From contig JBDHFY010000003.1 in the NCBI GenBank assembly GCA_039590195.1, positions 4,241 through 68,240 of the forward strand: 64,000 bases of DNA. Direction: 5' to 3'. Positions 5,875 through 62,078 of this stretch are shown piece by piece. The notes below the pieces were generated by a model. It was not told where the DNA came from, made no database searches, and saw only the letters and a list, made by a program, of their open reading frames with translations. The position numbers were made by a program, and so were the translations under genes. Each line of letters starts with the position of its first letter. Within the stretch, counting starts at the first letter, position 1. The DNA is from Gemmatimonadota bacterium. Lineage in GTDB: Bacteria > Gemmatimonadota > Gemmatimonadetes > Gemmatimonadales > GWC2-71-9.

Positions 5875-6215
5875 CGGCCGAACATTCCTGGGTCCAGGTC
5901 CAATCCCTCCTGGAGGTTCGCGATCATTTCATCGGAACGCCGGAGGGCCATCAAGCCGGACAACTCGAGCTGGTAGTAGCGCTTGGCCCGCCCACCCCGC
6001 TCAGGCGTGGGGTCGCCCAACGCGGAGGCCACATATCCCTTCCGCTCCATGCGATCCAGCGCCGAGTACACGGAGCCGATCCCCACTTCGCGGCCCGTCC
6101 GGGCCTCGATCTCCTCCCGGATGGCCATGCCGTAAGCACCGTCCCGAAGCCGAGCCAGCGCCAACAGGACGACCTGCTCGAACTCTCCTAGAAATCCGCC
6201 CTTGGGCATGGTCAC
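5871..6215 (-). CDS. PadR-family transcriptional regulator
   Basis: 114-aa ORF: FEQVVLLALARLRDGAYGMAIREEIE...GSVYSALDRMERKGYV...GRAKRYYQLE. Confidence 0.9.
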   Translation of the reverse strand: MTMPKGGFLGEFEQVVLLALARLRDGAYGMAIREEIEARTGREVGIGSVYSALDRMERKGYVASALGDPTPERGGRAKRYYQLELSGLMALRRSDEMIANLQEGLDLDPGMFGR

Positions 6216-29147: not shown

Positions 29148-29175
29148 GCCGGCCGCTGGCAGCCGGCCGCCGGCA
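29148..29175 (+). repeat. Heptamer repeat GCCGGCC GCTGGCA GCCGGCC GCCGGCA (GCYGGCM family)
   Basis: Four phased 7-mers immediately 3' of the cheR-like stop (29195). The outer arms GCTGCCGGC...GCCGGCAGC can pair, and the array is followed by CCCTTTTC. About 23 nt are identical to the reverse complement of 32495-32517. Confidence 0.7.
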
Positions 29176-29194
29176 GCCCTTTTCACGGCCGGAC

Positions 29195-30010: not shown

Positions 30011-30050
30011 GTCTCCTGCAACATGACAGCCCCGGCCTTGTGCGACTACT

Positions 30051-30245
30051 CCCCCCCACACCCCCACCCCTCCCGCTGCCCGCTGCCGGCTGCCGGCTGC
30101 CGGCTGCCAGCCGCCGTTTCCGTGGCAAACCACCTCTCACCTCTCACGTCTCACCTCTCACCACCTCTACACCCTACACCCTACACCCTATTCCCTAAGC
30201 CCTAAGCCCCAAGCCCCAAGCCCCAAGCCCCACGCCCCAATCCCT
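30051..30245. repeat. Mosaic array of ~25 phased heptamers (C-runs; GCTGCCG x6; CACCTCT x4-5; ACACCCT x3; AAGCCCY x6...)
   Basis: Read directly: gctgccc gctgccg gctgccg gctgccg gctgcca gccgccg tttccgt ggcaaac cacctct cacctct cacgtct cacctct caccacc (tct) acaccct acaccct acaccct attccct aagccct aagcccc aagcccc aagcccc aagcccc acgcccc aatccct. The array lies in the divergent region between the cheR-like gene (start 30010) and the lipoprotein gene (start 30403). Confidence 0.85.
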
Positions 30246-30402
30246 ATACCGACTCGCTCTATCGACATTGTGAGATAGATTGCGAATTCAGTGATGCGGC
30301 CGGATCATTGTGTCACATCGCGGGTAACAGATTCGTTCCACGATAGAGGCGACAAGCCCGCGATCTAGCCAGCCCTTTCTCCTCCTTTGGGGGCGCGCGA
30401 TC

Positions 30403-34852: not shown

Positions 34853-34887
34853 GCTGGCAGCTAACAGCTAATAGCTGTTAGCTCCTC
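34853..34887. repeat. Heptamer repeat GCTGGCA GCTAACA GCTAATA GCTGTTA GCTCCTC forming a palindrome (possible terminator/attenuator)
   Basis: The centre TAACAGCTA-T-TAGCTGTTA is a perfect 9-bp inverted repeat. It is located between the REC-HTH regulator stop (34890) and the PilX-like paralog 2 start. Confidence 0.65.
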
Positions 34888-44442: not shown

Positions 44443-45897
44443 TCACGGCGTTCCCCGCACGGGCTGCCCCGGGCGCACGGACTCCTTCAACTCACCCCCG
44501 TCGACGACCACCACACCGTTCACCAGCACATACGTGAATCCCTCTGAGTACTGAGCTGGATCTTGATACGTGGCCCGCTCGCGCACCTGGCTTGGATCGA
44601 AAACGACGATATCAGCGTCGGCCCCTTCCGACAAACGTCCCTTGCGTCGCATCACCGGCGCGGCCTGGACGAGACGCTGCGCCGGCATGTAGCTCATGCG
44701 TCGGATGGCATCCATCAACGTGAGATGTCCTTCTTCACGCACGTACATCGCCAGCATCTTCCCGTACGTCCCCGCGCCCCTCGGATGGCCTCGCCCATTT
44801 GAGATGCCACCGTCACTGCCCACCATGACATACGGGCTCGTCAGCGCCATCACGTTGCCGCGCTTCGGTACGAAGTGGATGACGACAGGCGTGGGTGTAC
44901 CGTCCTCGCGATACCGCCGGAAGGTTTCCTCGGTGAGCCGTTCACCGTTGGACACCAGTTCGATATCCCTGTACGAGATCTGCATGCGCTCCTGCCATCC
45001 GGGGTCGAACACCGCCGACTCGAGACCGGTGGAGCCCGCTTCCCACGGGTACGCATCAGCCGTCACGTCGATCCCGTGCGCCTGTGCGCCTGCGATCAAC
45101 TTGAGGGAGATGTCCATCTCGTGGCCCGCCACGGAGTTGATGTGAACGATCTGCGCAGCGGCTCCTGTGGCGGCGGCGTTGGCGATAACCTCCTGAATGC
45201 CCTTTGCACTGTTCTCGGGCGGATGGGGTCCCAGAAAGCGGATGTGGAGGTGACACGGGACTCCGGTCTCACCGCAAACGCGGAACAACTCGAATACTTC
45301 GTCGGCAGACGCTCCGGGAACGTATTGCACACCGAATCCGATGCCGACAGCCCCTTCGCGGATCGCTCGCTTCGCCAGCGTCACCATGCCCTCGATCTGG
45401 GCGGTCGTCGCAGGGACGTTGCGGTCCTCGATCCCGACGGCCACGCGCAACGCGCCATGTCCCACTGTCGTGCCGTAGTTGATGATACGCCCCTCGCCCG
45501 AGAGAGAGTCGTACCAGCGCCCCACTTCCACGGGGCCCCCGTGCATGCGGAGAATGGTCGTGACGCCATCCATCACCTTGTAGCGATTTCCCTCGATAGA
45601 GAAGCCACTGCTCAAGATGTCGATGAATCCGGGAGCAACAACCTTGCCCTCTGCGTCGATGACCCGATCACCGTCGATCGCAGCGACCGTCACGACGGCG
45701 ACTCGACCGTTGGAGATTCCGACATTGGCCCTGCTGTCGTAACCGGTTTCTGGATCCATCACCCGCCCGCCGCGGATCACGATGTCGTAGGGTGCCTCCT
45801 GAGCCAGAGCTGAATGCGCGAGGCTAGCGGAGAGGACGGGGGAAAGTCCTACCACCACCATTCGGCTCACTCCATGTAGACCTCTGTAATTCTTCAT
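44443..45897 (-). CDS. Amidohydrolase-superfamily protein, N-acyl-D-amino-acid deacylase-like
   Basis: 484-aa ORF with a signal peptide. The D-aminoacylase-like N-terminus is YDIVIRGGRVMDPETGYDSRANVGISNGRVAVV...VVAPGFID. Later metal-site-like segments are CHLHIRF, VHINSV and VGSDGG. The HxH normally following PGFID is replaced by ILS, so activity is uncertain. Confidence 0.6.
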   Translation of the reverse strand: MKNYRGLHGVSRMVVVGLSPVLSASLAHSALAQEAPYDIVIRGGRVMDPETGYDSRANVGISNGRVAVVTVAAIDGDRVIDAEGKVVAPGFIDILSSGFSIEGNRYKVMDGVTTILRMHGGPVEVGRWYDSLSGEGRIINYGTTVGHGALRVAVGIEDRNVPATTAQIEGMVTLAKRAIREGAVGIGFGVQYVPGASADEVFELFRVCGETGVPCHLHIRFLGPHPPENSAKGIQEVIANAAATGAAAQIVHINSVAGHEMDISLKLIAGAQAHGIDVTADAYPWEAGSTGLESAVFDPGWQERMQISYRDIELVSNGERLTEETFRRYREDGTPTPVVIHFVPKRGNVMALTSPYVMVGSDGGISNGRGHPRGAGTYGKMLAMYVREEGHLTLMDAIRRMSYMPAQRLVQAAPVMRRKGRLSEGADADIVVFDPSQVRERATYQDPAQYSEGFTYVLVNGVVVVDGGELKESVRPGQPVRGTP

Positions 45898-45931
45898 CGA
45901 CGCCTCCTCGACTGTTTCTCTCTCAAACGTC

Positions 45932-45973
45932 TGGTGCAGCTAACAGCTAATGGCTAACAGCTAGCAGCTGCAT
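45932..45973 (+). repeat. Heptamer repeat TGGTGCA GCTAACA GCTAATG GCTAACA GCTAGCA GCTGCAT
   Basis: Six phased 7-mers filling the gap between the class-A-like gene stop (45973) and the upstream gene start (45897). Confidence 0.7.
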
Positions 45974-46983
45974 CACGGATTAAAGAGGAAATAATCGTGG
46001 ATTGCTCTTGCGATATGGGCTATGGCCAGCTCGCGTTCGGACCCTTCGAGATCTGACTCCTTGACGAGCACCACCGTCACGACATGTCCGGCTTCGTTGG
46101 GAAGCGTGACGATGCCCACGTCGTTGGTGGTACCACCGATCGTTCCGGTCTTGTGAAAGACTTCCGTGTCCGGCGGCAACAGGCCCTTGATCCGCGCACG
46201 TCCGGTCGTGCTTCGTCGCATGATGTCCAGCAGTAGGTCGGAGCTCTGCTCACTGAGAATCTCCTTGCGCCAGATGCGCGCTAGGAGATCGGCCATGGCG
46301 TGCGGCGTGGCCGTATCCCGGGTATCTCGCTCGAACGCCTCGCCCGCTCGTTCCCTCACCTCATCCGGAATGCTGTCGGCGAGCTCGGAGAAATCGTGGG
46401 GCGTCACGTCACCGCTGGGTGGCAGGCCCTCCACGCCGATCCAGTCGCCGATCAAATGGACCGTTGGCCGATTCACGTCGATACCATCGATGCCGAGGGC
46501 TCGCATCCTGGCCGTCACGGCCTCCCCTCCACCGGCGGCGGTGAGAACCATGTCCGTTGCCGAGTTGTCACTGATGAGAAGCATGAGTTCAGTGAGATTT
46601 CGCAGCGAGAGGATGACTCCGGGGTCGTCGAAAAGTCGAGAGAGTGTTCCGCTTCCTGGATGCAGGTCGACCTGCCGGACCTCTATCATGGAGTCTAGGC
46701 TGATCTCGCCCGCGTCAACGCGGGTGAAGAGTTGCACGGCTATGGGCACCTTGTAGGTACTGGCCATGCCGAATCGCTCCCCGCCGTTGTGAGACACACG
46801 TCGCCCCGTCTCGAGGTGGATGGCCGCCACCCCGACCGGTCCTCCCGCCAGCTCGGCAAGCCGGGCGATTTCCGCTTCCAAATGTTGCAGGTGCGGGTCG
46901 GTCTGTGCATCGAGCGGTGTGGAGGGCAGGGCCACCGCAATGCAGATGTACGTAGCAGCGAGCAACTTACTCCGTACGGTCAT
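45973..46983 (-). CDS. Class A beta-lactamase-family serine hydrolase
   Basis: 336-aa ORF with a signal peptide. All three class A motifs are in order: STYK (SxxK), SDN, KTG (FHKTGTIGG). Confidence 0.8.
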   Translation of the reverse strand: MTVRSKLLAATYICIAVALPSTPLDAQTDPHLQHLEAEIARLAELAGGPVGVAAIHLETGRRVSHNGGERFGMASTYKVPIAVQLFTRVDAGEISLDSMIEVRQVDLHPGSGTLSRLFDDPGVILSLRNLTELMLLISDNSATDMVLTAAGGGEAVTARMRALGIDGIDVNRPTVHLIGDWIGVEGLPPSGDVTPHDFSELADSIPDEVRERAGEAFERDTRDTATPHAMADLLARIWRKEILSEQSSDLLLDIMRRSTTGRARIKGLLPPDTEVFHKTGTIGGTTNDVGIVTLPNEAGHVVTVVLVKESDLEGSERELAIAHIARAIHDYFLFNP

Positions 46984-47014
46984 GGCATTTGCTCCTTGGT
47001 TGTAGCCGTAGATG

Positions 47015-47035
47015 GCTGGCAGCCGGCAGCTGGCC
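47015..47035 (+). repeat. Heptamer repeat GCTGGCA GCCGGCA GCTGGCC
   Basis: Three phased 7-mers about 30 nt upstream of the class-A-like gene start (46983). Same family as 29148, 34853 and 53424. Confidence 0.6.
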
Positions 47036-47185
47036 CGGCGCGCGCGTGAGGGAGGTCGCGCCTCAGGTCCTCGGTGGCGCCCGCGACCGGGGCGTCTCCA
47101 CGGAGCGATCTCCCCCCGCGCGCGCCCTGAACCGGAAGCTGAACGCCGGGGTGGGCACCTGATTCACAACCGGGTGCCCGCTTTG

Positions 47186-47213
47186 CTAAGCCCCAACCCC
47201 TAAGCCCTGAGCT
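47186..47213. repeat. Heptamer repeat TAAGCCC CAACCCC TAAGCCC TGAGCTC
   Basis: Four phased 7-mers of the C-rich class overlapping the 3' end and stop of the racemase-family gene. A GGGCACC...GGTGCCC hairpin lies just upstream (47155-47180). Confidence 0.55.
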
Positions 47214-48321
47214 CCTCCGAGCGCACCGTCAGCTCGTCGACGCGGGCGACGTCCACCGTGACTCCGATGCCCGGCTTGTCCCGTGGCACGGACACCATCC
47301 CCTGCGCGGTCATGGTCCATTCAGGTGTCACGATGTCACGCGCCCAGTATCGAGCGCTTGGGCTCAGGTCGCCCGGCAGCGTGAAATTGGGCAGTGATGC
47401 AAGCGACACGTTGTACGCTCGTCCCACTCCGCTCTCCAGCATGCCGCCACACCACACGGGAACGTCGTGGTGTGCACAGAGGTCGTGGATAGCCTTGGAC
47501 ACCGTGATGCCGCCGACCCTTCCGGGTTTGATATTGATGATCTTGCCGCTGCCAAGGGTGATCATGTCTTGCGCCCTGGCCACGTTCGTGATCGACTCGT
47601 CGAGGCAGATCGGCGTCTTGAGCCGTCGTTGGAGTTCGGCGTGTTGCACGACGTCGTCCCACGCGAGAGGCTGCTCGATCATCAACAGGTCAAATTCGTC
47701 GAGTCGAGTCAAATGATCGAAATCGTCGCGCGTATAGGCGTTGTTGGCGTCGGCCATCAGCGAGACGACTGAGCCCAGCTCCTCACGGACCGCGCTGACG
47801 TACTCCATGTCCGAGCCCGGAGCGATCTTGATCTTGATCTTGCGGTAGCCCGCCTCGTGTGCGCTGCGCGCCTTTTCCACCAACGCGGCGGGGCTCGGCT
47901 GGATGCCGAGAGATATGCCGGTGCCGATCTCCGTGCGTGTTCCGCCAATGAGTTCGGACAGGCTCATGCGCCGGCATTCTGCTTCGAGGGCCCACATGCC
48001 CATCTCCACTGCGGCCTTCGCCATGTTGTGACCTCGGAAATCTCGTTCCAAGACATCATGCACCTGAGCCGCTCGTTCGAAGGCTACGCCGAGAACCCGC
48101 GGTGCTACCCATAGAGAAATGGCTAACCAGGCGGTGTCGATGGTTTCGGGAGAGTAGTTGGGCTGCTCATCCGCTACGCACTCGGACCAAGCCGTGCGGC
48201 CGCCGGCGTCGTGGAGTTCCAGCAGCAGAATCCTCCGGACGCTCAACGTCCCTGAGGAGATCTTGAACGGTTCGCGGAGCGGGAGGTGGATTTCGCGGAG
48301 GGTAAGGCGTTCGATTCTCAC
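47200..48321 (-). CDS. Enolase-superfamily o-succinylbenzoate synthase / N-acyl(succinyl)amino acid racemase family protein
   Basis: 373-aa ORF with a GTG start. MLE-subgroup catalytic pattern KIKIKIAPG (KxK), MADANNAY (D), MIEQPL (E), CLDES (D), NIKPGRVGG (K). Confidence 0.8.
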   Translation of the reverse strand: MRIERLTLREIHLPLREPFKISSGTLSVRRILLLELHDAGGRTAWSECVADEQPNYSPETIDTAWLAISLWVAPRVLGVAFERAAQVHDVLERDFRGHNMAKAAVEMGMWALEAECRRMSLSELIGGTRTEIGTGISLGIQPSPAALVEKARSAHEAGYRKIKIKIAPGSDMEYVSAVREELGSVVSLMADANNAYTRDDFDHLTRLDEFDLLMIEQPLAWDDVVQHAELQRRLKTPICLDESITNVARAQDMITLGSGKIINIKPGRVGGITVSKAIHDLCAHHDVPVWCGGMLESGVGRAYNVSLASLPNFTLPGDLSPSARYWARDIVTPEWTMTAQGMVSVPRDKPGIGVTVDVARVDELTVRSEELRA

Positions 48322-48491
48322 AGCGTAGCTCGTAAGTGCAAGTGTTCAGCGCGACGGCAGAGGATGGGGATTGCGTAAAACATCCGATCTGAAGCCGGCT
48401 TTTGGACTCCCAGCTCTTCCTGGGCGTGGTGACGCAACAATTCTATTGCATGAACCGTCATGGAGCCATGACCTTCTCCCGTTCTCGTAGC

Positions 48492-49607
48492 CTATTCCGG
48501 GGGGATGTCTTGCGCGCTCGGTAGGAAGACTTTGAACGCTGCACCGCCTTCCCGGGCCCGATCGACCCACGCAATGCCACCCAAGTCGAACGCCGTACGC
48601 TGGACGATGGCAAGACCTAACCCCGTTCCTTTCCCGGCGTCCTTCGTGGTATAGAAGGGCTCAAAGATGTGCTCCACGTATTCCTCGGGGACACCGACAC
48701 CAGAGTCAGCCACGCAGATCAACACCCCTGGGCTCCCCGGGAGCAACTCGGGGCGCCAGGGCCTCCGTACGCGCGGGCGCGTGTGGACGGGGCGATCACG
48801 GGCATCTCCCCTCCGGCGCAACGCGTAGCCCAACGGTCGATAGTGCGCCGAGAGCGTTGCCACAGTGATCGACCCCGCTGGGGCGGCGTCCACCGCGTTC
48901 AAGATCAGATTGACCATCAACTGCTCGAGAGTGTGGACCTGCGCGACAATGTGTGGTAGCTCAGGGTCGCGCTCCACAACGATGGTGATATTCTTCAACA
49001 CACCCTGCTGAGTCAGGAGTTCGATCGCGGCTTGCGCGACTGCCCCCAAATCAACCTCGGTCAGGGAGTCCCGCCTAGTGCGGCCGGAGTCCAGCAAGCC
49101 TCGGACAATGCGATCGATCCGGTCCATCTCGCGCGTAATCGCCTGGACGATTTCTGGATCGGGCTCGCCCTGTTCCAGCAGTGCTAAGTATGTCTTCATG
49201 GCCGCCAAGGGATTCCCAATTTCGTGAGCGATGCCAGCGGCCATTCTCCCGATGGCGGCCAACTGCTCGGCGCGTCCGAACTGTCTCTGGACGTCCGCCA
49301 CGTGCTCGGTCATGCTGTTGAATCGGTTAGCCAAGACGGCAAATTCGCGACTCGCGGCTTGTGGAGCACGGTGAGTAGGATCGCCCGCGGCGAGGGCGTT
49401 CGCGGTCGCTGCCAGTGATTCGAGCGGACCGATGACCAGCTTGCGAACCAGATGTTTTCCGTATGCGAGTGTTGCCGTGGCACAAGCGACGAGCGCGAGT
49501 GCGACGGCTAGCACGCCGAAGAGGGGTAGCGCAGGTGCCAGCCACACTGAGATCGCCAAGGCGATGCTGAGAGCTACGACAGGTGCTGCCAGGCGGGAGA
49601 GGAGCAC
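48492..49607 (-). CDS. Membrane sensor histidine kinase (2 TM + HAMP + DHp + CA)
   Basis: ORF 48492-49805 overlaps the upstream GNAT gene, so the start is provisionally the GTG at 49607. TM helices (AAPVVALSIALAISVWLA / LFGVLAVALALVACATATLAY), a HAMP-like linker, H-box AAGIAHEIGNPL, N-box LMVNLILNAVDA, DSGVGV, GKGTGLGLA. No response regulator is adjacent. Confidence 0.8.
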   Translation of the reverse strand: MLLSRLAAPVVALSIALAISVWLAPALPLFGVLAVALALVACATATLAYGKHLVRKLVIGPLESLAATANALAAGDPTHRAPQAASREFAVLANRFNSMTEHVADVQRQFGRAEQLAAIGRMAAGIAHEIGNPLAAMKTYLALLEQGEPDPEIVQAITREMDRIDRIVRGLLDSGRTRRDSLTEVDLGAVAQAAIELLTQQGVLKNITIVVERDPELPHIVAQVHTLEQLMVNLILNAVDAAPAGSITVATLSAHYRPLGYALRRRGDARDRPVHTRPRVRRPWRPELLPGSPGVLICVADSGVGVPEEYVEHIFEPFYTTKDAGKGTGLGLAIVQRTAFDLGGIAWVDRAREGGAAFKVFLPSAQDIPPE

Positions 49608-49686
49608 TCTCTCGAGGCGCGGCTGGGTTCCAGTGGCTTCAGTCGCACTGGCACCCCAGGCATCGGCCTCACCGATCCGCGTTTGT

Positions 49687-50538
49687 TTACTGGCGCTCGA
49701 GGAGATAGAAGCCACGATTGCCCTTATCCAAGTGGAAACCCTGAACTTGGTACCCCTTTTCCAGGTACCAGAGAAACGCTGTCCTGGTCGTCCTGCGCCA
49801 GGCATTGGCGGATTCCAAGGAGACGGACTTCACACGCTGGATGTCTCCCGGAATCTCGATCCTGACCGACGCGTGAGTGGGTAATGTCGTTCCCGCCGGC
49901 AGGGGCTCCCCTTCGCTGTTGGTGTTCACGACCGCCACCTTGCTGAATTCGGGTCGCGGCGAAGCCCGGGAGCCGGCCAGTGATTGCTCGACCCGAGGAT
50001 GGTTAAAATCCCATCGAACGACGAACCGATCGGTGCCCAGCCCGCTGTGGAGATCGCTTCCCGTGTCGTCACCGTACATTTCGGGGACGTACTCGACGGG
50101 GAGCGCTCCGAGGCGGTTGACATTGAGATTGGCGTTGCGGGCTTCGAGGGGGTCGTACGTCCAATAGGCAACCTCGACACCGCGGCTGAGCAGAAGCTGG
50201 CGTTGGTACTCCTTGAGGCGTCGTCCCAAACCTGAGCCCTGAGCTTCTGCTCGGACCGCCAGCATGTGAGACCAGTGTGCAGGTTGGCCGTCTCGGATTC
50301 CCGTCAAGCCGAACACGAATCCGATGAGCTGACCGCTACCGTCGAACGCCCCGGCCGCGATCCCCCCCGCCTTTTGGCTAATCATGAGGATGCTGGAGGG
50401 AACACACTCGGTGAATTCCTGGCCCCAGGTATCGCGTTGGAGCGCCTTGCATTGTTCGTAATCATCAAACGAATGGAATTCGCGGAGCGTCATGCCGTGG
50501 AATGAGGTGGACGAAGAGGTTGATGAAGGCGGTACCAT
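49687..50538 (-). CDS. GNAT-family acyltransferase (two-lobed, COG3375-like)
   Basis: 283-aa ORF whose ATG overlaps the upstream transporter TGA (ATGA). Acyl-CoA pocket-like segment HMLAVRAEAQGSGLGRRLKEYQ (Q/RxxGxG/A). Confidence 0.65.
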   Translation of the reverse strand: MVPPSSTSSSTSFHGMTLREFHSFDDYEQCKALQRDTWGQEFTECVPSSILMISQKAGGIAAGAFDGSGQLIGFVFGLTGIRDGQPAHWSHMLAVRAEAQGSGLGRRLKEYQRQLLLSRGVEVAYWTYDPLEARNANLNVNRLGALPVEYVPEMYGDDTGSDLHSGLGTDRFVVRWDFNHPRVEQSLAGSRASPRPEFSKVAVVNTNSEGEPLPAGTTLPTHASVRIEIPGDIQRVKSVSLESANAWRRTTRTAFLWYLEKGYQVQGFHLDKGNRGFYLLERQ

Positions 50539-51644
50539 CAGAGCGACTTCCGAGCCTGCCCTCGCATCTTCCAGATTCCGAGCGTCAGGATCGGCACGAC
50601 AAACACGGCGAGGAAGAACCAGGTAATCGTTCCGTATCCTCTGGCAATGAGGCCGATCAATCCGAATCGGGCGATGATCGAGCCGGCGATGAGGAGACCG
50701 AGCGCGACCGCCGGACGGAGGTAAATGGGCATCGTGACATTCCGTTCACTGAACGCACCGGCGATCCGCTCGTTGAGCCCGTGGATCATGCCTGTGCCGG
50801 TCTCGATGAGCGTTCCGAAGAGCACGATCTGGAATACGAGCTGGAACGCTCGCGAGCCAAGGATGTCCAGCAGGAAGTTGGCAGGAACGGCGTGCTCCAG
50901 CACCTGAGGGTATTGGCCTACCATCGAAAGATAGAAAAGGAAACCTGGAATGATGGCGATTGGGCCCGCCAGAATCCCCGCCGTGACAGCTTCGCGTCGC
51001 GTGTCGACGTGCCGCACGCAGAAGAGCAACGCCGGAATGAGCGAGAGATTGTAACCGGCGTACTTTACGCCACCGACGATCCAACGCGCGCCCGGGGGCT
51101 CGCTGCCCAGGCTCGATACGATGTCGCCGCCAAATCGGCTGAGACACCACACGAAAAAGACGGCGTACACACCGTAGAGCACAAATGACCAGCTGGCCAG
51201 AAACTTCTCGATGAGGCCCGTTCCGCGGAAGACCAGAAAGCCAACAGCCGCCATGATGCCCACGACTCCCAGATCGTGAGGTAGTCCGAAGGACTCTTGC
51301 AGGATGGCGCCCGCGGCGGCCGCAATGACCGCCAGCACCAGGAGAAGCTGGGCGACATACAGCGGCTCGTAGAGAAACCAGCCTCTTCCAAGCAAGTGCT
51401 TGAAGAAGCTGCGATAGTCGTAGCTTCTGAAGAGCCGGGAGAACTCAAAACTAGAGGCGCACACGGCACTCCAGATGGTCGTGGACACCAGAATCATGGC
51501 GAGGAGGCCGCCGAGCGGCCCGTACGTGAGAAAAAACTCCGCCAACTCGCGGCCGGTCCCGTAGCCCCCCGCGATCACCACCGACTGAAACACGAAGCCA
51601 GGCAACAGGTACTTCTGAAAGAACACTGATTTCACCGATTCCAT
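50538..51644 (-). CDS. Polytopic membrane protein, YkvI/amino-acid-transporter-like
   Basis: ORF 50538-52520 trimmed to MESVKSVFFQKYLLPGFVFQSVVIAGGYGTGRELAEFF (GAAGGA RBS). About 11 TM segments. The upstream 292 codons of the track ORF are repeat-derived (PAPPAPP) and non-coding. Confidence 0.6.
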   Translation of the reverse strand: MESVKSVFFQKYLLPGFVFQSVVIAGGYGTGRELAEFFLTYGPLGGLLAMILVSTTIWSAVCASSFEFSRLFRSYDYRSFFKHLLGRGWFLYEPLYVAQLLLVLAVIAAAAGAILQESFGLPHDLGVVGIMAAVGFLVFRGTGLIEKFLASWSFVLYGVYAVFFVWCLSRFGGDIVSSLGSEPPGARWIVGGVKYAGYNLSLIPALLFCVRHVDTRREAVTAGILAGPIAIIPGFLFYLSMVGQYPQVLEHAVPANFLLDILGSRAFQLVFQIVLFGTLIETGTGMIHGLNERIAGAFSERNVTMPIYLRPAVALGLLIAGSIIARFGLIGLIARGYGTITWFFLAVFVVPILTLGIWKMRGQARKSL

Positions 51645-51810
51645 TCCTTCGAGAGGCCGGAGCAGGGGATCCAGCCGGCGTGGAGAGTCCTGCCCCGACT
51701 TGGTGTCATTCCCACAACTACGATCGCAATGGGGTAGCGCCCGCTGCTCGAGCTTGGGCGCGGTCGGTGAGCAATAGCATATCACAATGTAGGGTTTTGT
51801 CCATGTGGGT

Positions 51811-51918
51811 GGAGGGGCAGGAGGGGCAGGAGGGGCAGGAGGGGTAGGAGGGGCAGGAGGGGCAGAAGGGGCAGGAGAGGCAGGAGAGGCAGGAGACGAA
51901 AAGGGGGCAGAAGAGGCA
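51811..51918 (+). repeat. 9-bp tandem repeat GGAGGGGCA (about 12 increasingly degenerate copies); G-quadruplex motif
   Basis: ggaggggca x3, ggaggggta, ggaggggca x2, gaaggggca, ggagaggca x2, ggagacgaa, aagggggca, gaagaggca. It lies in the divergent region between the transporter (start 51644, minus) and the dipeptidase (start 52042, plus). There are seven GGGG runs with 5-nt spacers on the plus strand. Confidence 0.85.
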
Positions 51919-52041
51919 GCAGAAGGTGCCGGGGCAGAGGCGCCAGACGAGCGGTTGCGCTCCGCCGCCGTGCAAGCTAATAGACGCAGAAGAAATCGCC
52001 CTTGCCGCGAGGCATTCGGGCCAACGTCTGGAGAGTGCAAC

Positions 52042-53373
52042 ATGCGACCTGGCGGCTGCGTGCTGGTTATGGCAATGCTCGGCTTCATCCATTCCACCAA
52101 GGCCCAAGAGCCCTGGCCGGAGCCCGGCCCGGAGCTGTTGAGCCGGGCCAGAGCGCTTCTCTCCCAGGTGCCGCTCATAGACGGACACAACGATCTCCCG
52201 TCAACGCTGCTGGAGACCGTGGGCGGCGATTTGAATCGGGCCGACATCGCCCTCCGCCAGCCGCAGCAGTCGGCCGATCTGCCACGGTTGCGGGAAGGGA
52301 TGGTCGGAGGGCAGTTCTGGTCGGCACATGCGCCGGCCGAGACCATGTTCACAGGAGACGCGCTAGCGCGATCCCTCCAGCAGATCGACATGGTCCACCG
52401 CCTGGTGGCGCGATATCCGGATCTGGAGCTTGGCCGTACGGCTGAGGATGTCGAACGGATCCACACGGAGGGGAAGATTGCGTCTATGATCGGGGTCGAG
52501 GGTGGGCACATGATCGACAACTCCCTCGCGGCGCTCAGGATGTTCTACAGGCTCGGCGGCCGCTACATGACGCTGACCCACTTTCGAACCACCGACTGGG
52601 CGGATGCCGCCACGGACGTGCCCCGACATGGTGGGCTCTCGGAGTTTGGTGAAGAAGTCGTACGGGAGATGAACCGACTTGGAATGTTTGTCGACCTTTC
52701 GCACGTCAGTGTCGAGACGATGAGAGACGCGCTCCGAGTTAGCCGCGCGCCCGTGATTTTCTCACACTCTAACGCTCTCGCGGTCAACATACACCCTCGC
52801 AACGTCCCGGATGACGTGCTTGGGATGGTGGCGGAGAATGGGGGAGTGGTGATGGTGAACTTCATCGCCGGCTACGTTCCGCCGACGCCGCCGGAATGGC
52901 GTAGCCTGACGGGCAGCGCCGCGGCAACATTCCATCTCCAGGCAGGGCAATCCGCCGACGAGCCCGTGTGGAACGCCCGCCGCATCGAGGTGGTGGAAGG
53001 GCTTCGGGCGGAGCTGGATGATGACGCGGAGATCACGCGGCGTCTCGCCGAGTGGGTACGGCAGAATCCTCCACCCAGGGGAACGGTGGGGGACGTGGCG
53101 GATCACATCGACCACATCCGGAACGTGGCCGGCATCGACCACATCGGAGTAGGGTCAGATTTCTATGATGCCGGCGGGCCCTCGATGGCGGCCGGCCTCG
53201 AGGATGTCAGCAAGTTCCCCGTGCTGTTCGCGGAACTGTTGCGGCGAGGTTACAGTGACGAGGATATCAAGAAGATCGCCGGCCTAAACATGTTGCGGGC
53301 GATGCGAGAGATGGAACGGGTTGCCCAGGAATTGCGCCGTGACCATGGCCCGTCGCTCGCCGAGCTGCGGTAG
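52042..53373 (+). CDS. M19-family membrane (renal-type) dipeptidase
   Basis: ORF 51805-53373 trimmed to MRPGGCVLVMAMLGF (signal). Signature VPLIDGHNDLP, GGQFWS, IEGGH, MTLTH, VDLSHVS, IFSHSN. Confidence 0.85.
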   Translation: MRPGGCVLVMAMLGFIHSTKAQEPWPEPGPELLSRARALLSQVPLIDGHNDLPSTLLETVGGDLNRADIALRQPQQSADLPRLREGMVGGQFWSAHAPAETMFTGDALARSLQQIDMVHRLVARYPDLELGRTAEDVERIHTEGKIASMIGVEGGHMIDNSLAALRMFYRLGGRYMTLTHFRTTDWADAATDVPRHGGLSEFGEEVVREMNRLGMFVDLSHVSVETMRDALRVSRAPVIFSHSNALAVNIHPRNVPDDVLGMVAENGGVVMVNFIAGYVPPTPPEWRSLTGSAAATFHLQAGQSADEPVWNARRIEVVEGLRAELDDDAEITRRLAEWVRQNPPPRGTVGDVADHIDHIRNVAGIDHIGVGSDFYDAGGPSMAAGLEDVSKFPVLFAELLRRGYSDEDIKKIAGLNMLRAMREMERVAQELRRDHGPSLAELR

Positions 53374-53423
53374 CCAAGGAGTACAAACTGATGGAAGCAG
53401 TCTACCGAACCACTCTGGTGCGA

Positions 53424-53479
53424 GCCGGCCGCCGGCAGCCGGTACCTAACAGCTGACGGCTAACAGCTAACAGCTACAG
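53424..53479 (+). repeat. Heptamer repeat, 8 phased units: GCCGGCC GCCGGCA GCCGGTA CCTAACA GCTGACG GCTAACA GCTAACA GCTACAG
   Basis: It occupies the gap between the convergent dipeptidase (stop 53373) and asparaginase. The asparaginase TAG stop lies inside the last unit. Confidence 0.8.
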
Positions 53480-54433
53480 GTCGCGCGCGATTACGGCTCG
53501 TACGTCGTCATCCAACGGATTTCCGGTGATGCGGCCCCCGGGAACGCGGGAGGCGATGGCCAGTGCTGTGCTCCGTCGGGAGGCTTCGCGTAGCGCCCTT
53601 CGAGCGCCGGCGCTCATCCGCCCGCCGGCAAAGGTCGTCACGACAAGCCCACTGATTCTCTTTTCCATCCAGTAGTCGATCGCGGATCCGTCGAAGCCGG
53701 CATAGTCCGCGACGATCTCCACCCGGGGCAGCTCGGTCAACTGAATGACGTCAAACGCTGAGTGCGCCGTGTGGCGCCGCAACGGCGCCCGGTAGAACAC
53801 GACGGTGTCTGGATCGGCGAAGCCCAGGACCCCCAACTCTGGAGTGCGGAACGTCTGCACTCGGCGGTTGTCAGTCTTCCACACGTCGCGGGCGCTGCTG
53901 ATCTCCTCATTGAGGACGACGAGAACGCCCTTCCCGCCTGCTTCCGGCGATACGACTACGCGCACCGCGTTCAGAAGGTTGGCCGGACCATCGGCGGAGA
54001 TCTCCGTTGCCGAGCGCATGGAACCCACCATGACGACCGGCCGTGAGTCCCGGATCGTGAGGTGGAGAAAGTAAGCTGTCTCCTCCAGGGTGTCGGTGCC
54101 GTGCGTGACAACGACACCCGCGAGATCCGGCTGCTCGCCGAACAACGCGTTGATCCGCTTGGCGAGGCGGAGCCAATGTGGGGGCGTCATCTGCGATGAC
54201 CCGATGCGGCTGAACTCCTCCACAGAGACGTCGGCGTGGTCCAGAAGCTCGGGAACCGCCTGCACGAGCGCGGGCCCCTCCATGATTGGGGCCCCTGCGC
54301 GACTGGCAATCGTTCCGCCGGTCGTGACGATCACGACCTTGGGCATGGGTCGGGACTGCCCGCTGACGCCGGAAGGTCCCCATGCCATGCCGAAGCCCGC
54401 ACCGACCACCGTTACAAGAGTCCGGAACCTCAC
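53474..54433 (-). CDS. Type II (periplasmic) L-asparaginase family protein
   Basis: 319-aa ORF with a signal peptide. Active-site motifs VTTGGTIAS and VVTHGTDTLEETAYFL. Confidence 0.85.
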   Translation of the reverse strand: MRFRTLVTVVGAGFGMAWGPSGVSGQSRPMPKVVIVTTGGTIASRAGAPIMEGPALVQAVPELLDHADVSVEEFSRIGSSQMTPPHWLRLAKRINALFGEQPDLAGVVVTHGTDTLEETAYFLHLTIRDSRPVVMVGSMRSATEISADGPANLLNAVRVVVSPEAGGKGVLVVLNEEISSARDVWKTDNRRVQTFRTPELGVLGFADPDTVVFYRAPLRRHTAHSAFDVIQLTELPRVEIVADYAGFDGSAIDYWMEKRISGLVVTTFAGGRMSAGARRALREASRRSTALAIASRVPGGRITGNPLDDDVRAVIARDL

Positions 54434-54685
54434 GGCCTACCTCCCCGTTCCGTTTCCGAGAATATCGTCCGAAGCGACCGCACACGGCGCTGTGACATCA
54501 ACGGTGACATCGACGCTTGAAGATCGCAAGGCGCCACTCACGACTCGTGATCATCCCGAGTGGACACGTTCCTTGCGGCCTGCAACGCGCCCCGTAAGAT
54601 TACGCGTGGATTGGCAGGACCGCTGTTAGCCTTTTGCGAGACGAGATCGCTGTACACTTCTCGGGTTGGATCAAAGGAGCTGAGA

Positions 54686-57052
54686 ATGCTTGAACGGGGA
54701 AGGCGGGTTGTCGGTGCCGCGCTGGTTGTCATTGCCGGTGCCTTCGCCTGTGGACGACAGGCGGCGGATGTTCCTCCGCGGCAGGACTATGCGGAAGCCG
54801 CGGAGCGTCTCGCAGCTTTTGTTGAGCACGAGATGGCGGACAAATCACTGCCGGCTATCTCCATCGTCCTCGTGGACGATCAGGAGATCGTCTGGGCTCG
54901 CGGTTTCGGTTATGCTGATCCGGAAGACAGCGTGGAGGCCACAGCTGCGACGGTGTACCGGGTGGGATCGGTCTCGAAGCTCTTCACCGACCTTGGGATC
55001 ATGCAACTCGTGGAGCGAGGAGAGATCGATCTCGACGCGCCCGTGACGGATTACCTGCCGGATTTTCGTCCCGAGAGCCGGTTCGAGGAAGGCGTGACCC
55101 TGCGGCAACTCATGTCGCACCGCTCCGGGCTCGTGCGAGAACCGCCGGTTGGCCACTACTTCGATGACACCGACGCCTCTCTCGAAGCCACGGTCGCTAG
55201 CCTCAACCAAACAGCGGCCGTGTACGAGCCGGAGTCGCGCACGAAGTACTCGAATGCAGGAATTGCCTCGGTGGGATATGCGCTCGAACGTACGAAGGGA
55301 GAACCGTTCGCAGACTATCTGAAGCACGCAGTCCTCGACCCATTGGGCATGGATCGAAGCGCATTTGATCCTGATGCCTCCATCGCGCGCAGGCTGGCGC
55401 GCGCATATATGTGGACGTACGACGGCCGCACCTTTGAGGCTCCCGGATTTCAGTTGGGGATGGCCCCCGCCGGAAGCATGTACGCTCCCGTGACCGATCT
55501 GGGTCTGTTCATGAGCGCGCTCTTCGCGGACGGTGTGGGCGCGCGTGGTCAGGTAGTGTCGTCTGAAACTCTCGCGGAGATGCTCACACCGCAGTTCGCG
55601 CCGAGTGATGCCACCACCGGGTACGGCATCGGATTCCGCCTGTCGGAGTTCGATGGCCACCGTGCGATCGGCCATGGTGGAGCGATCTATGGATTTGCGA
55701 CGGACCTCGCGGCGCTGCCCGACGAGAAGCTCGGAGCGGCTGCAGTGACCACGATGGACGGCGCGAACGCCGTCGTTGAGCGGATCACGAGGTACGCCCT
55801 GAGGCTGATGCTGGCCGTGCGCGAAGGGCGCCCCCTTCCTGAAGCGGAAGTGACGGAAGACGTGCCTCTGGATGTGTTCGACCGGATCGCCGGCCGGTAT
55901 GGCCGCGGCGACCGGCAGATCGACATCACAACCCGCGGAGGGGAGGCACGTGCGTGGGTGCGCCGGCCAGGCCTACGCCTCCGGCTCATGGCCCGCGGCG
56001 ACACCCTGATCGTGGACGATCGGCTCGCGTATGGGACGCGGATCATTCCGGTCGAAGGCGGAATTGTCGTCGACGGCGACAGGCTCGAGCGAGTTACGGT
56101 GCCCAAGCCGCCGCGGGCTCCGACGGAATGGCTGGAACTCTTGGGCGAGTACGGTTGGGATCACAACACCCTCTACATCCTGGAAAGGGATCGCCAGCTT
56201 CACGCGTTGATCGAGTGGTTCTTCCTGTACCCGCTCGAGGAGATCTCCCCGGACGTGTTTGCGTTCCCCTCATGGGGCCTGTACGACGGTGAGCGGTTGC
56301 TCTTCTCCCGAGATGCAGATGGACGGGCAACTGGCGTCGAGGCTGCGAGTGTGGTGTTCGCGCGCAGGGAGGTCGGCACGGAGGCAGGGGTCACGTTCAC
56401 CATCGAGCCCGTTCGCCCGGTGGACGAGCTTCGTGGCGAGGCGCTGGCGGCGAGCCCGCCGGAAGAGGTGGGCGAGTTTCGAGACCCAGACCTGGCCGAA
56501 CTCAAGACTCTCGAACCGACCATCGAGTACGACATCCGTTATGCCAGCACCAACAACTTCATGCAATCGGTGTTCTACGACCAGCCAAAGGCATTCATGC
56601 AGCGGTCAGCTGCGGAGGCGTTGGTCGGGGCACACGGCAAGTTGCGGGAACGAGGGTACGGTCTGCTGATTCATGACGCGTACCGACCGTGGTATGTGAC
56701 GAAGATGTTCTGGGATGCGACACCCGAGGACATGAAGATTTTCGTCGCTGACCCAGCAAGCGGGTCGCGTCACAACCGCGGTGCGGCGGTGGACCTCACG
56801 CTGTACGACGTGCGCACGGGCCGACCCATTGAGATGGTCGGGGGATACGATGAATTCTCGGATCGCTCGTTTCCCGATTACGTTGGCGGCACATCGCTCG
56901 AGCGCTGGCACCGAGATCTCTTGCGGGATGCGATGGAAGCGGAAGGATTTCAGGTGTACGAGTTCGAGTGGTGGCATTTCGACTACGGTCATTGGTCACG
57001 ATATCCGATTATGAATGTGACATTTGATGAGATAGGGAGAGGGGAGAGGTGA
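54686..57052 (+). CDS. Fusion lipoprotein: beta-lactamase-fold serine hydrolase + middle domain + VanX/DdpX-type D-Ala-D-Ala dipeptidase (M15D)
   Basis: ORF 54560-57052 trimmed to MLERGRRVVGAALVVIAGAFAC (AAAGGAG RBS, lipobox). The N-terminal domain has YRVGSVSKLFT (SxxK) and SHRSGL. The C-terminal ~176 aa (about 56522-57049) carry the VanX zinc motifs SRHNRGAAVD (SxHxxGxAxD) and EWWHF. Confidence 0.8.
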   Translation: MLERGRRVVGAALVVIAGAFACGRQAADVPPRQDYAEAAERLAAFVEHEMADKSLPAISIVLVDDQEIVWARGFGYADPEDSVEATAATVYRVGSVSKLFTDLGIMQLVERGEIDLDAPVTDYLPDFRPESRFEEGVTLRQLMSHRSGLVREPPVGHYFDDTDASLEATVASLNQTAAVYEPESRTKYSNAGIASVGYALERTKGEPFADYLKHAVLDPLGMDRSAFDPDASIARRLARAYMWTYDGRTFEAPGFQLGMAPAGSMYAPVTDLGLFMSALFADGVGARGQVVSSETLAEMLTPQFAPSDATTGYGIGFRLSEFDGHRAIGHGGAIYGFATDLAALPDEKLGAAAVTTMDGANAVVERITRYALRLMLAVREGRPLPEAEVTEDVPLDVFDRIAGRYGRGDRQIDITTRGGEARAWVRRPGLRLRLMARGDTLIVDDRLAYGTRIIPVEGGIVVDGDRLERVTVPKPPRAPTEWLELLGEYGWDHNTLYILERDRQLHALIEWFFLYPLEEISPDVFAFPSWGLYDGERLLFSRDADGRATGVEAASVVFARREVGTEAGVTFTIEPVRPVDELRGEALAASPPEEVGEFRDPDLAELKTLEPTIEYDIRYASTNNFMQSVFYDQPKAFMQRSAAEALVGAHGKLRERGYGLLIHDAYRPWYVTKMFWDATPEDMKIFVADPASGSRHNRGAAVDLTLYDVRTGRPIEMVGGYDEFSDRSFPDYVGGTSLERWHRDLLRDAMEAEGFQVYEFEWWHFDYGHWSRYPIMNVTFDEIGRGER

Positions 57053-57061
57053 CTAGGGAGC

Positions 57062-57092
57062 GGGGAGTGGGGAGCGGGTACCTCCACTCCCC
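57062..57092. terminator. Hairpin GGGGAGTGG-N13-CCACTCCCC between convergent genes
   Basis: Perfect 9-bp stem within a GGGAGCG/GGGAGTG heptamer context, 10 nt after the fusion-gene stop. Confidence 0.45.
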
Positions 57093-57129
57093 GGCGACAC
57101 GCCGAATGGCGCATTGACGAGGCAGCTGG

Positions 57130-60707: not shown

Positions 60708-60777
60708 GAGAAGGGCGAAGGGGAATCCGTAGGGGCGCAGCATGCTGCACCCCTACCTAATTCCCCTTCTCCCTCTC
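60708..60777. terminator. Long imperfect inverted repeat (about 34-nt arms) between convergent genes; bidirectional terminator candidate
   Basis: gagaagggcgaaggggaatccgtaggggcgcagc-at-gctgcacccctacctaattccccttctccctctc. The central GTAGGGG(C)GCAGC/GCTGC(A)CCCCTAC stem is nearly perfect. The arms are themselves built from G-rich/C-rich heptamers. Confidence 0.6.
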
Positions 60778-60779
60778 CC

Positions 60780-62078
60780 TTAACTCATCTCCGCGATCAC
60801 CTCTGCCACCCGTTCTACTTCCTGCATCGTGTTGTAGATGTGCGGGCACAAGCGGATGCCCGTGAACTCCCCTCCGCGAGCCGCGCCCGCAATGTGGTGC
60901 TCGTGGTACAGCTTACCGTAAGCCTCTGGCACATCCATCCCCGGCGGGTGGGCGACGACGACACCGCCGCTGAACTCGGGTTCCATAGGGGTGTGGATCT
61001 TGATACCGGGGATTTGATCCTGCAGCCCCTTCTTCAGGGCCCAAGCGAGGTCGCGGATCCGTGCCTCGATTCGCTCCGGGCCGATCGTGTTGTGGAAATC
61101 GACGGTCGTGCCCATCGCCGCTACCGCTGAGTCATCCCGTTGACCGAGCGTCTCAAATTTGCGGGCTCCATTGTCGACGGCGCTCTGCCAGCCGACTCCC
61201 ACATCGCTCGCCCAGAGATCAGCGGCCCGCTCCCTTCGCACGTAGAGGACCCCCGCCTCCTTGGGGCCCACGAACCACTTGTGGCCGCTTCCCGTGTAGA
61301 AGTCGCAGCCCATCTCGTGCAAGTTCACCTGCATGGCCCCGAAGCTCTGGGCGCCGTCCACGAGAGTGAGGGCGCCGCGGTCCCGCACCAGGCGGCAGAT
61401 GGCTTTCGCGGGCACCGCGATACCGGAGGTGTTGGAGATATGGCTGAACGCCACGACTCTGGTGCTTCCACTCATTGCGTCCCGGAACGGCTTGATTAGG
61501 TCATCGGCCGTACGAGGATCGGGCGGTGTTTTCACCCGCTTGACCGTAAACCCGTACCGCGTGGCCCGAACGTCCCAGGCGATGTTGTTGGTCGGGTGGT
61601 TCTGATCCCAGATCACCACCTCGTCGCCCGGGCCGAGGTCCAGGCCGTTCACCACCGTGTTGTTCCCCTCGCTCGTGTTGCGCGTGATGGCGATTTCGTC
61701 GGGATCAGCGCCCAGATACGCAGCCAGGCCCACCCTGGCCTTTTCCCGCAGCCGGCCGAACTTGGCCCGGTTTTGGAACGATGCGTCCAGGTCCACGTCG
61801 CGGGTCAGCCGAAAGACTGCTCGCTGGACCGGGTACGGCGAGGGACAGAGGTTGGCCGCGTTCATGAGAATGAGGTCGGAGCGGAGAGGGAATTGTCCCT
61901 TCACGAGATGCCAGAACGGCTCATCACCTGGGTCGTCGGCGAAGAGCGGTTCCGTGGCTCGGCGGAGCGCACGGGAGGACGGTATTGGGCGGGCGCTCAC
62001 CGCCGTGGGAAAGGCTGCCGCCGCGGCCACGCCTCCTAGCAGTCGCCCGAGAAACCGACGTCGATCGTGAACGTTCAT
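60780..62078 (-). CDS. Class V aminotransferase-fold PLP enzyme (cysteine desulfurase / isopenicillin-N-epimerase-like) with Tat signal
   Basis: 432-aa ORF: MNVHDRRRFLGRLLGGVAAAAAFPTAVSA (twin-arginine). PLP lysine context SGHKWFVGPKEAG. HISNTSG. Confidence 0.8.
   Translation of the reverse strand: MNVHDRRRFLGRLLGGVAAAAAFPTAVSARPIPSSRALRRATEPLFADDPGDEPFWHLVKGQFPLRSDLILMNAANLCPSPYPVQRAVFRLTRDVDLDASFQNRAKFGRLREKARVGLAAYLGADPDEIAITRNTSEGNNTVVNGLDLGPGDEVVIWDQNHPTNNIAWDVRATRYGFTVKRVKTPPDPRTADDLIKPFRDAMSGSTRVVAFSHISNTSGIAVPAKAICRLVRDRGALTLVDGAQSFGAMQVNLHEMGCDFYTGSGHKWFVGPKEAGVLYVRRERAADLWASDVGVGWQSAVDNGARKFETLGQRDDSAVAAMGTTVDFHNTIGPERIEARIRDLAWALKKGLQDQIPGIKIHTPMEPEFSGGVVVAHPPGMDVPEAYGKLYHEHHIAGAARGGEFTGIRLCPHIYNTMQEVERVAEVIAEMS

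Follow-up and report, generated by a model that had tools for sequence, protein, structure and literature searches.

A G-rich 9-nt repeat separates the ykvI and M19 dipeptidase genes

In the 64-kb window (the whole stretch of DNA that was analysed), two divergently oriented genes, encoding a YkvI-family membrane protein and an M19 membrane dipeptidase, flank a spacer that carries a tandem array of the G-rich 9-nt unit GGAGGGGCA (Table 1). The array occupies window positions 51811-51918 and consists of 12 in-register units, five of them perfect, two with one mismatch and an intact GGGG run, and five decayed. Read from 51811, the order is GGAGGGGCA three times, GGAGGGGTA, GGAGGGGCA twice, GAAGGGGCA, GGAGAGGCA twice, GGAGACGAA, AAGGGGGCA and GAAGAGGCA. 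TRF reported positions 51811-51895 with period 9, 9.4 copies and 93% matches, and the score of 142 was the maximum for the window (among 41 rows). These data bear out the original prediction of about 12 copies of a G-rich 9-mer with seven evenly spaced GGGG runs between divergent genes; the runs follow the 9-nt periodicity and are separated by 5-nt gaps. The predicted distances were also right, as the array lies 124-231 nt from the dipeptidase ATG 52042 and 167-274 nt from the ykvI ATG 51644.

Table 1. Features of the ykvI-M19 dipeptidase locus (window coordinates)
Feature	Position	Strand	Description
YkvI-family membrane protein gene, 368 aa	50538..51644	-	start ATG 51644
Candidate sigma-70-type ykvI promoter	51776..51803	-	TGGACA-16 nt-TG-n-TATGCT, extended -10
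Array core	51811..51873	+	seven GGGG-keeping 9-nt units: 5 x GGAGGGGCA, GGAGGGGTA, GAAGGGGCA
Decayed units, same register	51874..51918	+	GGAGAGGCA x2, GGAGACGAA, AAGGGGGCA, GAAGAGGCA
Purine-rich tail GCAGAAGGTGCCGGGGCAGAGGCGCCAGACGAGCGG	51919..51954	+	links array to dipeptidase promoter; alignment, composition
Candidate M19 dipeptidase promoter	51955..51983	+	TTGCGC-17 nt-TAATAG; conservation (four aligned relatives and L214)
M19 membrane dipeptidase gene, 443 aa	52042..53373	+	Pfam PF01244, E = 3.5e-111

The pattern GGGG-N5-GGGG-N5-GGGG-N5-GGGG matched the window four times, in the array only, with an expectation of 0.00 from 100 dinucleotide shuffles, and a two-unit 18-mer with up to three mismatches matched eight times, again in the array only (0.14 expected). 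On the plus strand, the 151 nt separating the boxes of the two candidate promoters are 57% G and 83% purine, and GC skew reaches +0.69.

The relatives used for comparison are Gemmatimonadota from Bohai Sea sediment metagenomes and metagenome-assembled genomes (MAGs) (PMC11316326), and their contigs are referred to below by L numbers. Nearly all of the best 120 of 3298 YkvI homologues, which carry the JGI label 'uncharacterized membrane protein YkvI', are 356-392 aa long, in agreement with the start at ATG 51644, and an identical 368-aa YkvI-family product is called in contig L001. The dipeptidase ATG is preceded by a Shine-Dalgarno sequence, GGAGAG, at 52030-52035, and the N-terminus read from this ATG, MRPGGCVLVMAMLGFIHSTKA, is signal-peptide-like. 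Public calls for this dipeptidase have 443 aa in both L001 and L002; the product called in L214 is 432 aa long. NCBIfam gave no name for either the YkvI-family protein or the dipeptidase, and no public record was found for the window's own dipeptidase with a start at either ATG 52042 or GTG 51805.

The gene content of the wider region at 44443-57052 suggests a cluster for the salvage of peptides and D-amino acids. Encoded here are a D-aminoacylase-like amidohydrolase, a protein resembling class A beta-lactamases, an enolase-superfamily enzyme resembling OSBS or N-acylamino-acid racemase, a sensor histidine kinase, a GNAT protein, YkvI, the M19 dipeptidase and an asparaginase, as well as a fusion of a beta-lactamase-fold protein to an M15 D-Ala-D-Ala dipeptidase. 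Since the genes flanking the array, a membrane protein and a dipeptidase in a salvage neighbourhood, are functionally related, it is plausible that they are controlled jointly through the spacer.

Non-coding status of the array

Both strands have open frames across the array, and the long ORFs read GAGGAGG.. in the direction of the dipeptidase and ..PAPPAPP.. upstream of YkvI, as had been noted in the original prediction. The repeat could accordingly be translated as a low-complexity N-terminal extension of either protein. Against this, contig L002 (the same contig as L212) has a 4-nt deletion within the array, which would frameshift any ORF crossing it and breaks both frames, and L214 has merely 35 nt at the array position. 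The short starts fit the homologue lengths and the public gene calls, and no called product on record corresponds to either of the long forms. The PF01244 domain begins at residue 118 of the long ORF, i.e., at residue 39 from ATG 52042, and in the extended protein the signal-peptide-like segment would end up 79 residues inside. Moreover, the GC3-GC2 values of the flanks of the array-spanning frame are close to zero (-0.02 and 0.10), which is not coding-like. Thus, the translated-repeat reading is already effectively refuted, and several independent kinds of evidence show that the earlier view of both stretches as non-coding extensions was right.

Location of the array between two candidate promoters

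A consensus scan of positions 51500-52200 yielded a single promoter-like site (0.1 expected), the candidate ykvI promoter, the -35 box of which ends 7 nt from the first repeat unit. The spacer was aligned between the window and four syntenic relatives, and a fifth relative, L214, was compared as well. The block of the ykvI promoter is conserved in the alignment, and the scan recovered the same architecture in L004 and L003 too. In L214 the -35 box is TGCACA, which is under the scan threshold, and the conserved block is retained. On the strand of the dipeptidase gene, the alignment reveals a second conserved block, GGTTGC...AGCTAATAGACGC. In this block, GGTTGC (51955-60) and, 17 nt further, TAATAG (51978-83) followed by ACGC are arranged in such a way that both hexamers are conserved and the sequence between them is variable while its length is constant. 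Conserved hexamers with a variable spacer of constant length are the classical footprint of a promoter. The match to the sigma-70 consensus is poor (3/6 and 3/6) and the candidate falls under the threshold of the consensus scan, so that it is conservation on which the assignment of the M19 promoter rests. The purine-rich tail that joins the array to this block is missing from L003, L004 and L214 according to the alignment.

A short G+C-rich hairpin is located at 51997-52014, just 3' of the candidate M19 promoter, and would span about +7 to +25 in the predicted mRNA. Although its bases have changed, three lineages retain it, namely as TGCCTCGCGGCAAGGGCG in the window, CGCCTCGCTGCGAGGGCG in L003 (47-64) and CGCCCCACGGCGAGGGCG in L214 (2096-2113), and it has a terminator-like score on the opposite strand. 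This hairpin could serve to stabilise the 5' end of the mRNA or to terminate antisense transcripts.

As judged from the predicted boxes, the spacer that the array fills is bounded by two conserved candidate promoters placed back to back, and because of this location the array is probably upstream of both transcription starts. It overlaps neither candidate core promoter, does not separate a -35 from a -10 element, and probably belongs to neither 5' UTR. If it were nevertheless transcribed, within a long M19 leader that starts at an unrecognised promoter further upstream or as a separate small RNA, it might act as an RNA G-quadruplex (G4), for which the predicted energy is -31.3 kcal/mol with RNA parameters, or through SD-like GGAGG or CAGGA sites, which are present in every unit and would bind ribosomes or a CsrA-like protein. 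Most of the G-rich simple-sequence repeats (SSRs) of Xanthomonas are transcribed (PMC4692102), and the heptamers of Beggiatoaceae have been proposed as sites of post-transcriptional regulation (PMC4679880). However, the scan detected no plus-strand promoter-like site 5' of the array and no terminator 3' of it, the conserved promoter-like block of the M19 gene lies downstream of the array, and L214 has almost no array. In addition, Rfam covariance models gave no match up to E = 1 in positions 51300-52300, and a structured RNA or riboswitch in the spacer was rejected on the same grounds. We therefore consider an RNA-level function of the array highly improbable.

Repeat number and spacer length vary among strains and lineages

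The original prediction had proposed looking for copy-number polymorphism in relatives, and such polymorphism was found. Among three haplotypes with about 99.5-99.7% identity across 4-9 kb, the array is present as three alleles: the reference, one of +9 nt and one of -4 nt. In L001, one additional GGAGGGGCA is present within the perfect left-hand run, whereas L002 lacks TAGG in the array, a deletion that is out of period. Both indels map to the array core, which is at the same time its G4-capable part. L002 also has a plus-strand A>G substitution at 51896, in a decayed unit. Repeat-number polymorphism of the kind found in SSR-mediated phase variation is thus present as three alleles in metagenome assemblies, in which an assembler error within the repeat is possible.

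Besides the array alleles, the indels between the strains comprise one 1-nt intergenic indel and two larger deletions of 94 and 130 nt. The window lacks, at 53476/53477, 94 nt that are present in L001 (1066-1159), exactly at the end of a CTAACAG array. With this segment the L-asparaginase gene has lost roughly its final 30 codons, and Pfam Asparaginase_C matches the window's copy only over positions 1-69 of 114; the loss is either a real deletion beside a repeat or an assembly artefact. The other deletion is in L212, near position 5960, where 130 nt (window 46232-46361) are missing from the class A beta-lactamase-like gene, giving a product of 289 aa compared with 336 aa in the window and L213. 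The heptamer arrays at 45937 and 47176 were considered as equally unstable candidates and rejected, since they differ by substitutions only and their copy number is unchanged in L212 and L213. In the CAGCTAA array at 45951-45965 there are four clustered substitutions relative to L212 at the same length, with four perfect units in L212 and two in the window, which suggests homogenisation of units within arrays.

Over a larger evolutionary distance (78-87% identity in ykvI DNA, four lineages), the distance from one -35 box to the other is 35 nt in L214, 79 nt in L003, 80 nt in L004, 147 nt in L002, 151 nt in the window and 160 nt in L001, and these lengths share no common helical phase. The tract has about 3 units in L214, is degenerate in L003 and has about 5 units in L004; the five longer tracts are 56-58% G. 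Because all versions are built from CAGGAGGGG-like units, a short seed appears to predate the split of the lineages and to have expanded in the lineage of the window. Among 80 GTDB loci with a YkvI homologue, the divergent ykvI-M19 arrangement was found in none beyond the partial contig L131 (the L003 contig), so that the comparison is limited to four lineages. In L005-L010, which encode a 77% identical protein, the context is different and there is no repeat, and L211 offers only 87 nt of upstream sequence.

The length series also bears on the possibility that the units are direct-repeat sites for a DNA-binding regulator, or for a nucleoid protein that prefers G-rich DNA, co-controlling the transporter-like gene and the dipeptidase gene. 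Identical 9-mers are iterated between the divergent promoters of functionally related genes, and a sensor histidine kinase gene is found two genes away. Still, with a 9-nt period neighbouring sites would not share a face of the helix, relatives have anywhere from about 3 to 13 units, which decay freely, and no regulator gene is adjacent. Considering also that the same 27-mer of three units occurs in at least 120 unrelated metagenome contigs in mixed contexts, we regard such a binding-site array as very unlikely.

The array is probably a tolerated product of replication slippage

Taken together, the array is a real, statistically unmistakable, non-coding, G4-capable and copy-number-polymorphic 9-nt repeat in a divergent-promoter spacer. 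We consider it most probable, with a likelihood of roughly two in three, that it is a non-coding variable-number tandem repeat (VNTR) generated by slippage and tolerated by the spacer, with at most a modulatory effect. According to this explanation, the locus would be a simple-sequence repeat of the unit GGAGGGGCA placed between back-to-back promoters, that of ykvI directed leftwards and that of the periplasmic M19 dipeptidase rightwards. A short purine-rich seed of about 3 units would have been enlarged by replication slippage, units would still be gained and lost in the perfect, ykvI-proximal part, and the distal units would decay through point mutation. Slipped-strand mispairing fits the difference between the perfect and the decayed end of the array and the fact that a complete unit was gained where the perfect run is longest. 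Once single-stranded, the G-rich strand could fold into G-quadruplexes. At most the array might modulate the promoters via their distance, via helical phase, or via non-B DNA that forms when divergent transcription generates negative supercoiling. Since the promoter blocks are conserved whether 35 or 160 nt separate them, the array is most likely a tolerated filler.

Some of the observations speak against this explanation. A G-rich and purine-rich tract persists at exactly this position in all four lineages, which could reflect either selection or concerted evolution by slippage, and the functional relatedness of the flanking genes makes shared control plausible. The alleles come from metagenome assemblies, where they may be errors of the assembler, and both promoters are predictions, the M19 one with a poor match to the consensus.

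G-quadruplex capacity and the possibility of a regulatory switch

The claim of a G4 motif and the suggestion to score it with G4Hunter both proved well founded, as the array satisfies the canonical sequence definitions. The canonical motif (at least four G-tracts of at least three G with loops of 1-7 nt) is matched by regular expression at 51807-51871 with 5-nt loops. The G4Hunter score is 2.16 for 51811-51871, 1.63 for the full 108 nt and 1.77 for an 84-nt tract, which is the longest tract at or above 1.5 in the window; the usual thresholds of 1.5-2.0 are thereby exceeded. ViennaRNA with G-quadruplex energies predicted two G4s on the G strand, one of them four-layer, with an energy of -27.5 kcal/mol with DNA parameters, and without the gquad option gave no meaningful hairpin on either strand. 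At the same time, the canonical motif was present in 50-89% of the shuffles of each relative's tract. At 57% G and with such shuffle rates, the G4 capacity follows from composition and is not separately conserved. L214 has only two G-runs and would thus be unable to form an intramolecular G4, yet it retains both genes and both promoter blocks. Hence, a retention of G4 motifs in the orthologous promoters beyond what composition explains was not observed in L214 or in the shuffle comparison.

It had been proposed that the array is a G4/i-motif element or a repeat-number-dependent switch for one or both divergent promoters. Mechanistically, negative supercoiling between the divergent polymerases would cause the plus strand to extrude G4s and the minus strand to extrude i-motifs, and these structures or the number of units would tune the promoters. 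Such a role draws on the seven GGGG runs, the canonical motif and G4Hunter score, the predicted DNA G4 energy with no competing hairpin, and the array directly abutting the ykvI -35 box. Copy number also varies between strains, modulation from upstream of a core promoter has a precedent in the TAAA tract of nadA (PMC2791445), and G4 effects in Escherichia coli, as far as they are cited in PMC4692102, vary with position and strand. However, neither promoter has the array between its -35 and -10 boxes, the genes and promoter blocks persist in L214 without the G4 motif, the spacers have no common helical phase, the out-of-period 4-nt deletion is tolerated, and the motif is expected from composition alone. 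Moreover, similar arrays occur at non-promoter sites genome-wide, and for the best-studied class of G4-forming SSRs no regulatory role was found. The findings in L214, the shuffle rates and the absence of a common helical phase therefore disfavour a mechanism that depends on G4 formation, a fixed unit number or a fixed helix face.

Phase variation by SSRs involves a repeat within a coding sequence, between the -35 and -10 elements, or on a known operator; this array lies outside the ORFs and the core promoters. Changes by 9-nt units could not cause a frameshift in any case. With the array outside the core promoters and spacings of 35-160 nt, we found no supporting evidence for the switch as originally suggested, and the 4-nt out-of-period deletion, L214 without a G4 and similar arrays at non-promoter spacers are further evidence against it. 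A functional G4 or copy-number switch appears possible, but the comparative data do not favour it and we consider it unlikely. The comparison of relatives suggests that the array is an ordinary slippage-prone repeat and not a proven switch.

Similar arrays elsewhere in the window and in other genomes

Arrays of at least four copies of a 7-9-nt unit are confined to non-coding DNA: all 10 of those in the window are located in the approximately 11% that is non-coding, these fractions being approximate because the gene map consists of longest ORFs corrected by hand. As they are mostly at gene 3' ends or between convergent genes, these arrays are not promoter-linked. Some of the units recur: those of the CAGCTAA type are found at 34858, 45937 and 53446, those of the CCCCAAG type at 30193 and 47183. 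Other Gemmatimonadales MAG loci likewise have 7-8-nt arrays with up to 21 copies.

CAGCNNN heptamers (CAGCTAA, CAGCCGG, CAGCTGG, GCTGCCG) occupy many spacers, mostly right after stop codons or between convergent genes, at 29148-29178, 30075-30116, 34858-34876, 45937-45969, 47014-47035 and 53423-53476. Three copies of CAGCTAA provide TAA in three frames and TAG in three frames of the opposite strand. The array at 34858 flips into a perfect 12-nt palindrome, AGCTAACAGCTA-A-TAGCTGTTAGCT. The CAGCNNN arrays resemble the dispersed heptamer families of Beggiatoaceae, cyanobacteria and Xanthomonas. A 215-nt intergenic block at 30039-30253 contains GCTGCCG x6, CACCTCT x4.6, CACCCTA x4 and CCCCAAG x7.4 in succession; its plus strand is C-rich (G4Hunter -1.7) and has two C-strand G4 motifs, and the CCCTAAG/CCCCAAG units are telomere-like. 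Two inverted repeats with G-rich and C-rich arms between convergent genes, one at 57056-57095, GGGGAGTGG...CCACTCCCC, and one at 60711-60780, GAAGGGGAAT..GTAGGGG..CCCCTAC..ATTCCCCTTC, are similar to bidirectional terminator hairpins and are behind several of the G4Hunter matches. In the other Gemmatimonadales MAGs, the arrays include TCTCACG x17, CCGTCTGC x21 and CCCGACC x14, found in L170 (CBDFJJ010000011) at 4992-5112 and 6910-7080, in L200 at 4172-4272 and in L177 at 2821-2856. TRF reports the 8-nt unit CCGTCTGC in two of the MAGs, L170 and L177, which hints at repeat families common to several genomes.

The unit GGAGGGGCA itself is at a single locus in the window. The exact 27-mer (GGAGGGGCA)x3 was matched by at least 120 contigs from metagenomes, in mixed contexts; many of these contigs have 62-72% G+C and are repeat-rich. 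Among the matches listed, the G+C content of the contigs ranges from 20 to 77%, 36 arrays are at contig ends, and of the 84 loci that have sufficient flanking sequence, 32 lack an open frame across the array; some of the arrays may encode Gly-Gly-Ala repeats. A homologous element family was rejected as an explanation of these matches, given the heterogeneity of G+C content and context, and none of the matches listed corresponds to the present locus.

The array might also combine both properties, i.e., it could belong to a lineage-wide set of dispersed intergenic 7-9-nt repeat families in marine-sediment Gemmatimonadota, similar to the heptamer families of Xanthomonas, Nostoc and Beggiatoaceae, and at the same time be a supercoiling-sensitive G4/i-motif element, the slippage-set unit number of which tunes and couples expression of the divergent pair in natural populations. 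We consider this combination rather improbable.

Relationship to described bacterial repeats

Our search for literature on tandem repeats in Gemmatimonadetes found nothing relevant. The closest described class, to which the array belongs in our best reading, is that of the G4-forming heptamer SSRs of Xanthomonas and Nostoc (GGGAATC and GGGGA(C/T)T), of which the non-coding DNA of these bacteria contains many (Rehm et al. 2015, PMC4692102). They form G4s and i-motifs in vitro, vary extensively in length between relatives with no regulatory role found, and are under-represented between divergent ORFs, supposedly through promoter interference (PMC4692102). The array agrees with this class in being a variable-length, non-coding tandem repeat with a G-rich unit of 6-9 nt, and it shares with it one G-tract per unit, a free-living bacterial host, a host genome rich in other 7-nt SSRs, variation in length and sequence at the same intergenic position between close relatives, and a function not demonstrated in either case. 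In contrast to the 7-nt units with GGG(G) and the preference for four units and co-oriented ORFs in Xanthomonas and Nostoc, the array has 12 units of 9 nt with GGGG, is situated between divergent ORFs in a member of the Gemmatimonadota, and has its unit at one locus in the 64-kb window.

Long-unit SSRs that arise from slipped-strand mispairing are, according to the work cited in PMC4692102, a feature of large, high-G+C genomes of non-pathogens. With bacterial VNTR and long SSR loci the array has in common the head-to-tail tandem units, the decay gradient, the addition of a complete unit where the perfect run is longest, and the intergenic location in a high-G+C environmental organism. Nothing essential differs; the array adds the high G and purine content and the G4 capacity.

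In Neisseria meningitidis, the TAAA tract upstream of the nadA core promoter modulates expression, and defined NadR and IHF sites flank or overlap this AT-rich tetranucleotide tract in the promoter of a surface adhesin gene of a host-adapted pathogen (PMC2791445). As in nadA, the tract described here is upstream of the -35, its unit changes shift the spacing between distal elements and the core promoter, and copy number is strain-variable. Unlike in nadA, the tract is G-rich with a 9-nt unit, has no known operator sites, and separates metabolic genes of a sediment bacterium.

Intergenic heptamer direct repeats (TAACTGA) are abundant in marine Beggiatoaceae, Cyanobacteria and Bacteroidetes (PMC4679880). 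The recurrence of units at intergenic loci of the window, CAGCTAA at three sites and CCCCAAG-like units at two, is reminiscent of these heptamers and of cyanobacterial STRR. In contrast to the TAACTGA heptamers, which are mostly just 5' of start codons, the array is a 9-mer, present once in the window and located between promoters.

Implications

If the array is a product of slippage and nothing more, its practical value is confined to that of a hypervariable strain marker for an uncultured Gemmatimonadota population of the Bohai Sea type, of a likely assembly breakpoint, and of a warning for gene callers, since both long ORFs across it are artefacts. If the regulatory reading were true, the locus would represent a natural G4-forming repeat between bacterial divergent promoters and a test bed for supercoiling-driven non-B DNA in the control of bacterial genes. 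For research on repeat families, the 7-9-nt arrays with recurring units that are confined to the small non-coding fraction of the window may be the more useful lead.
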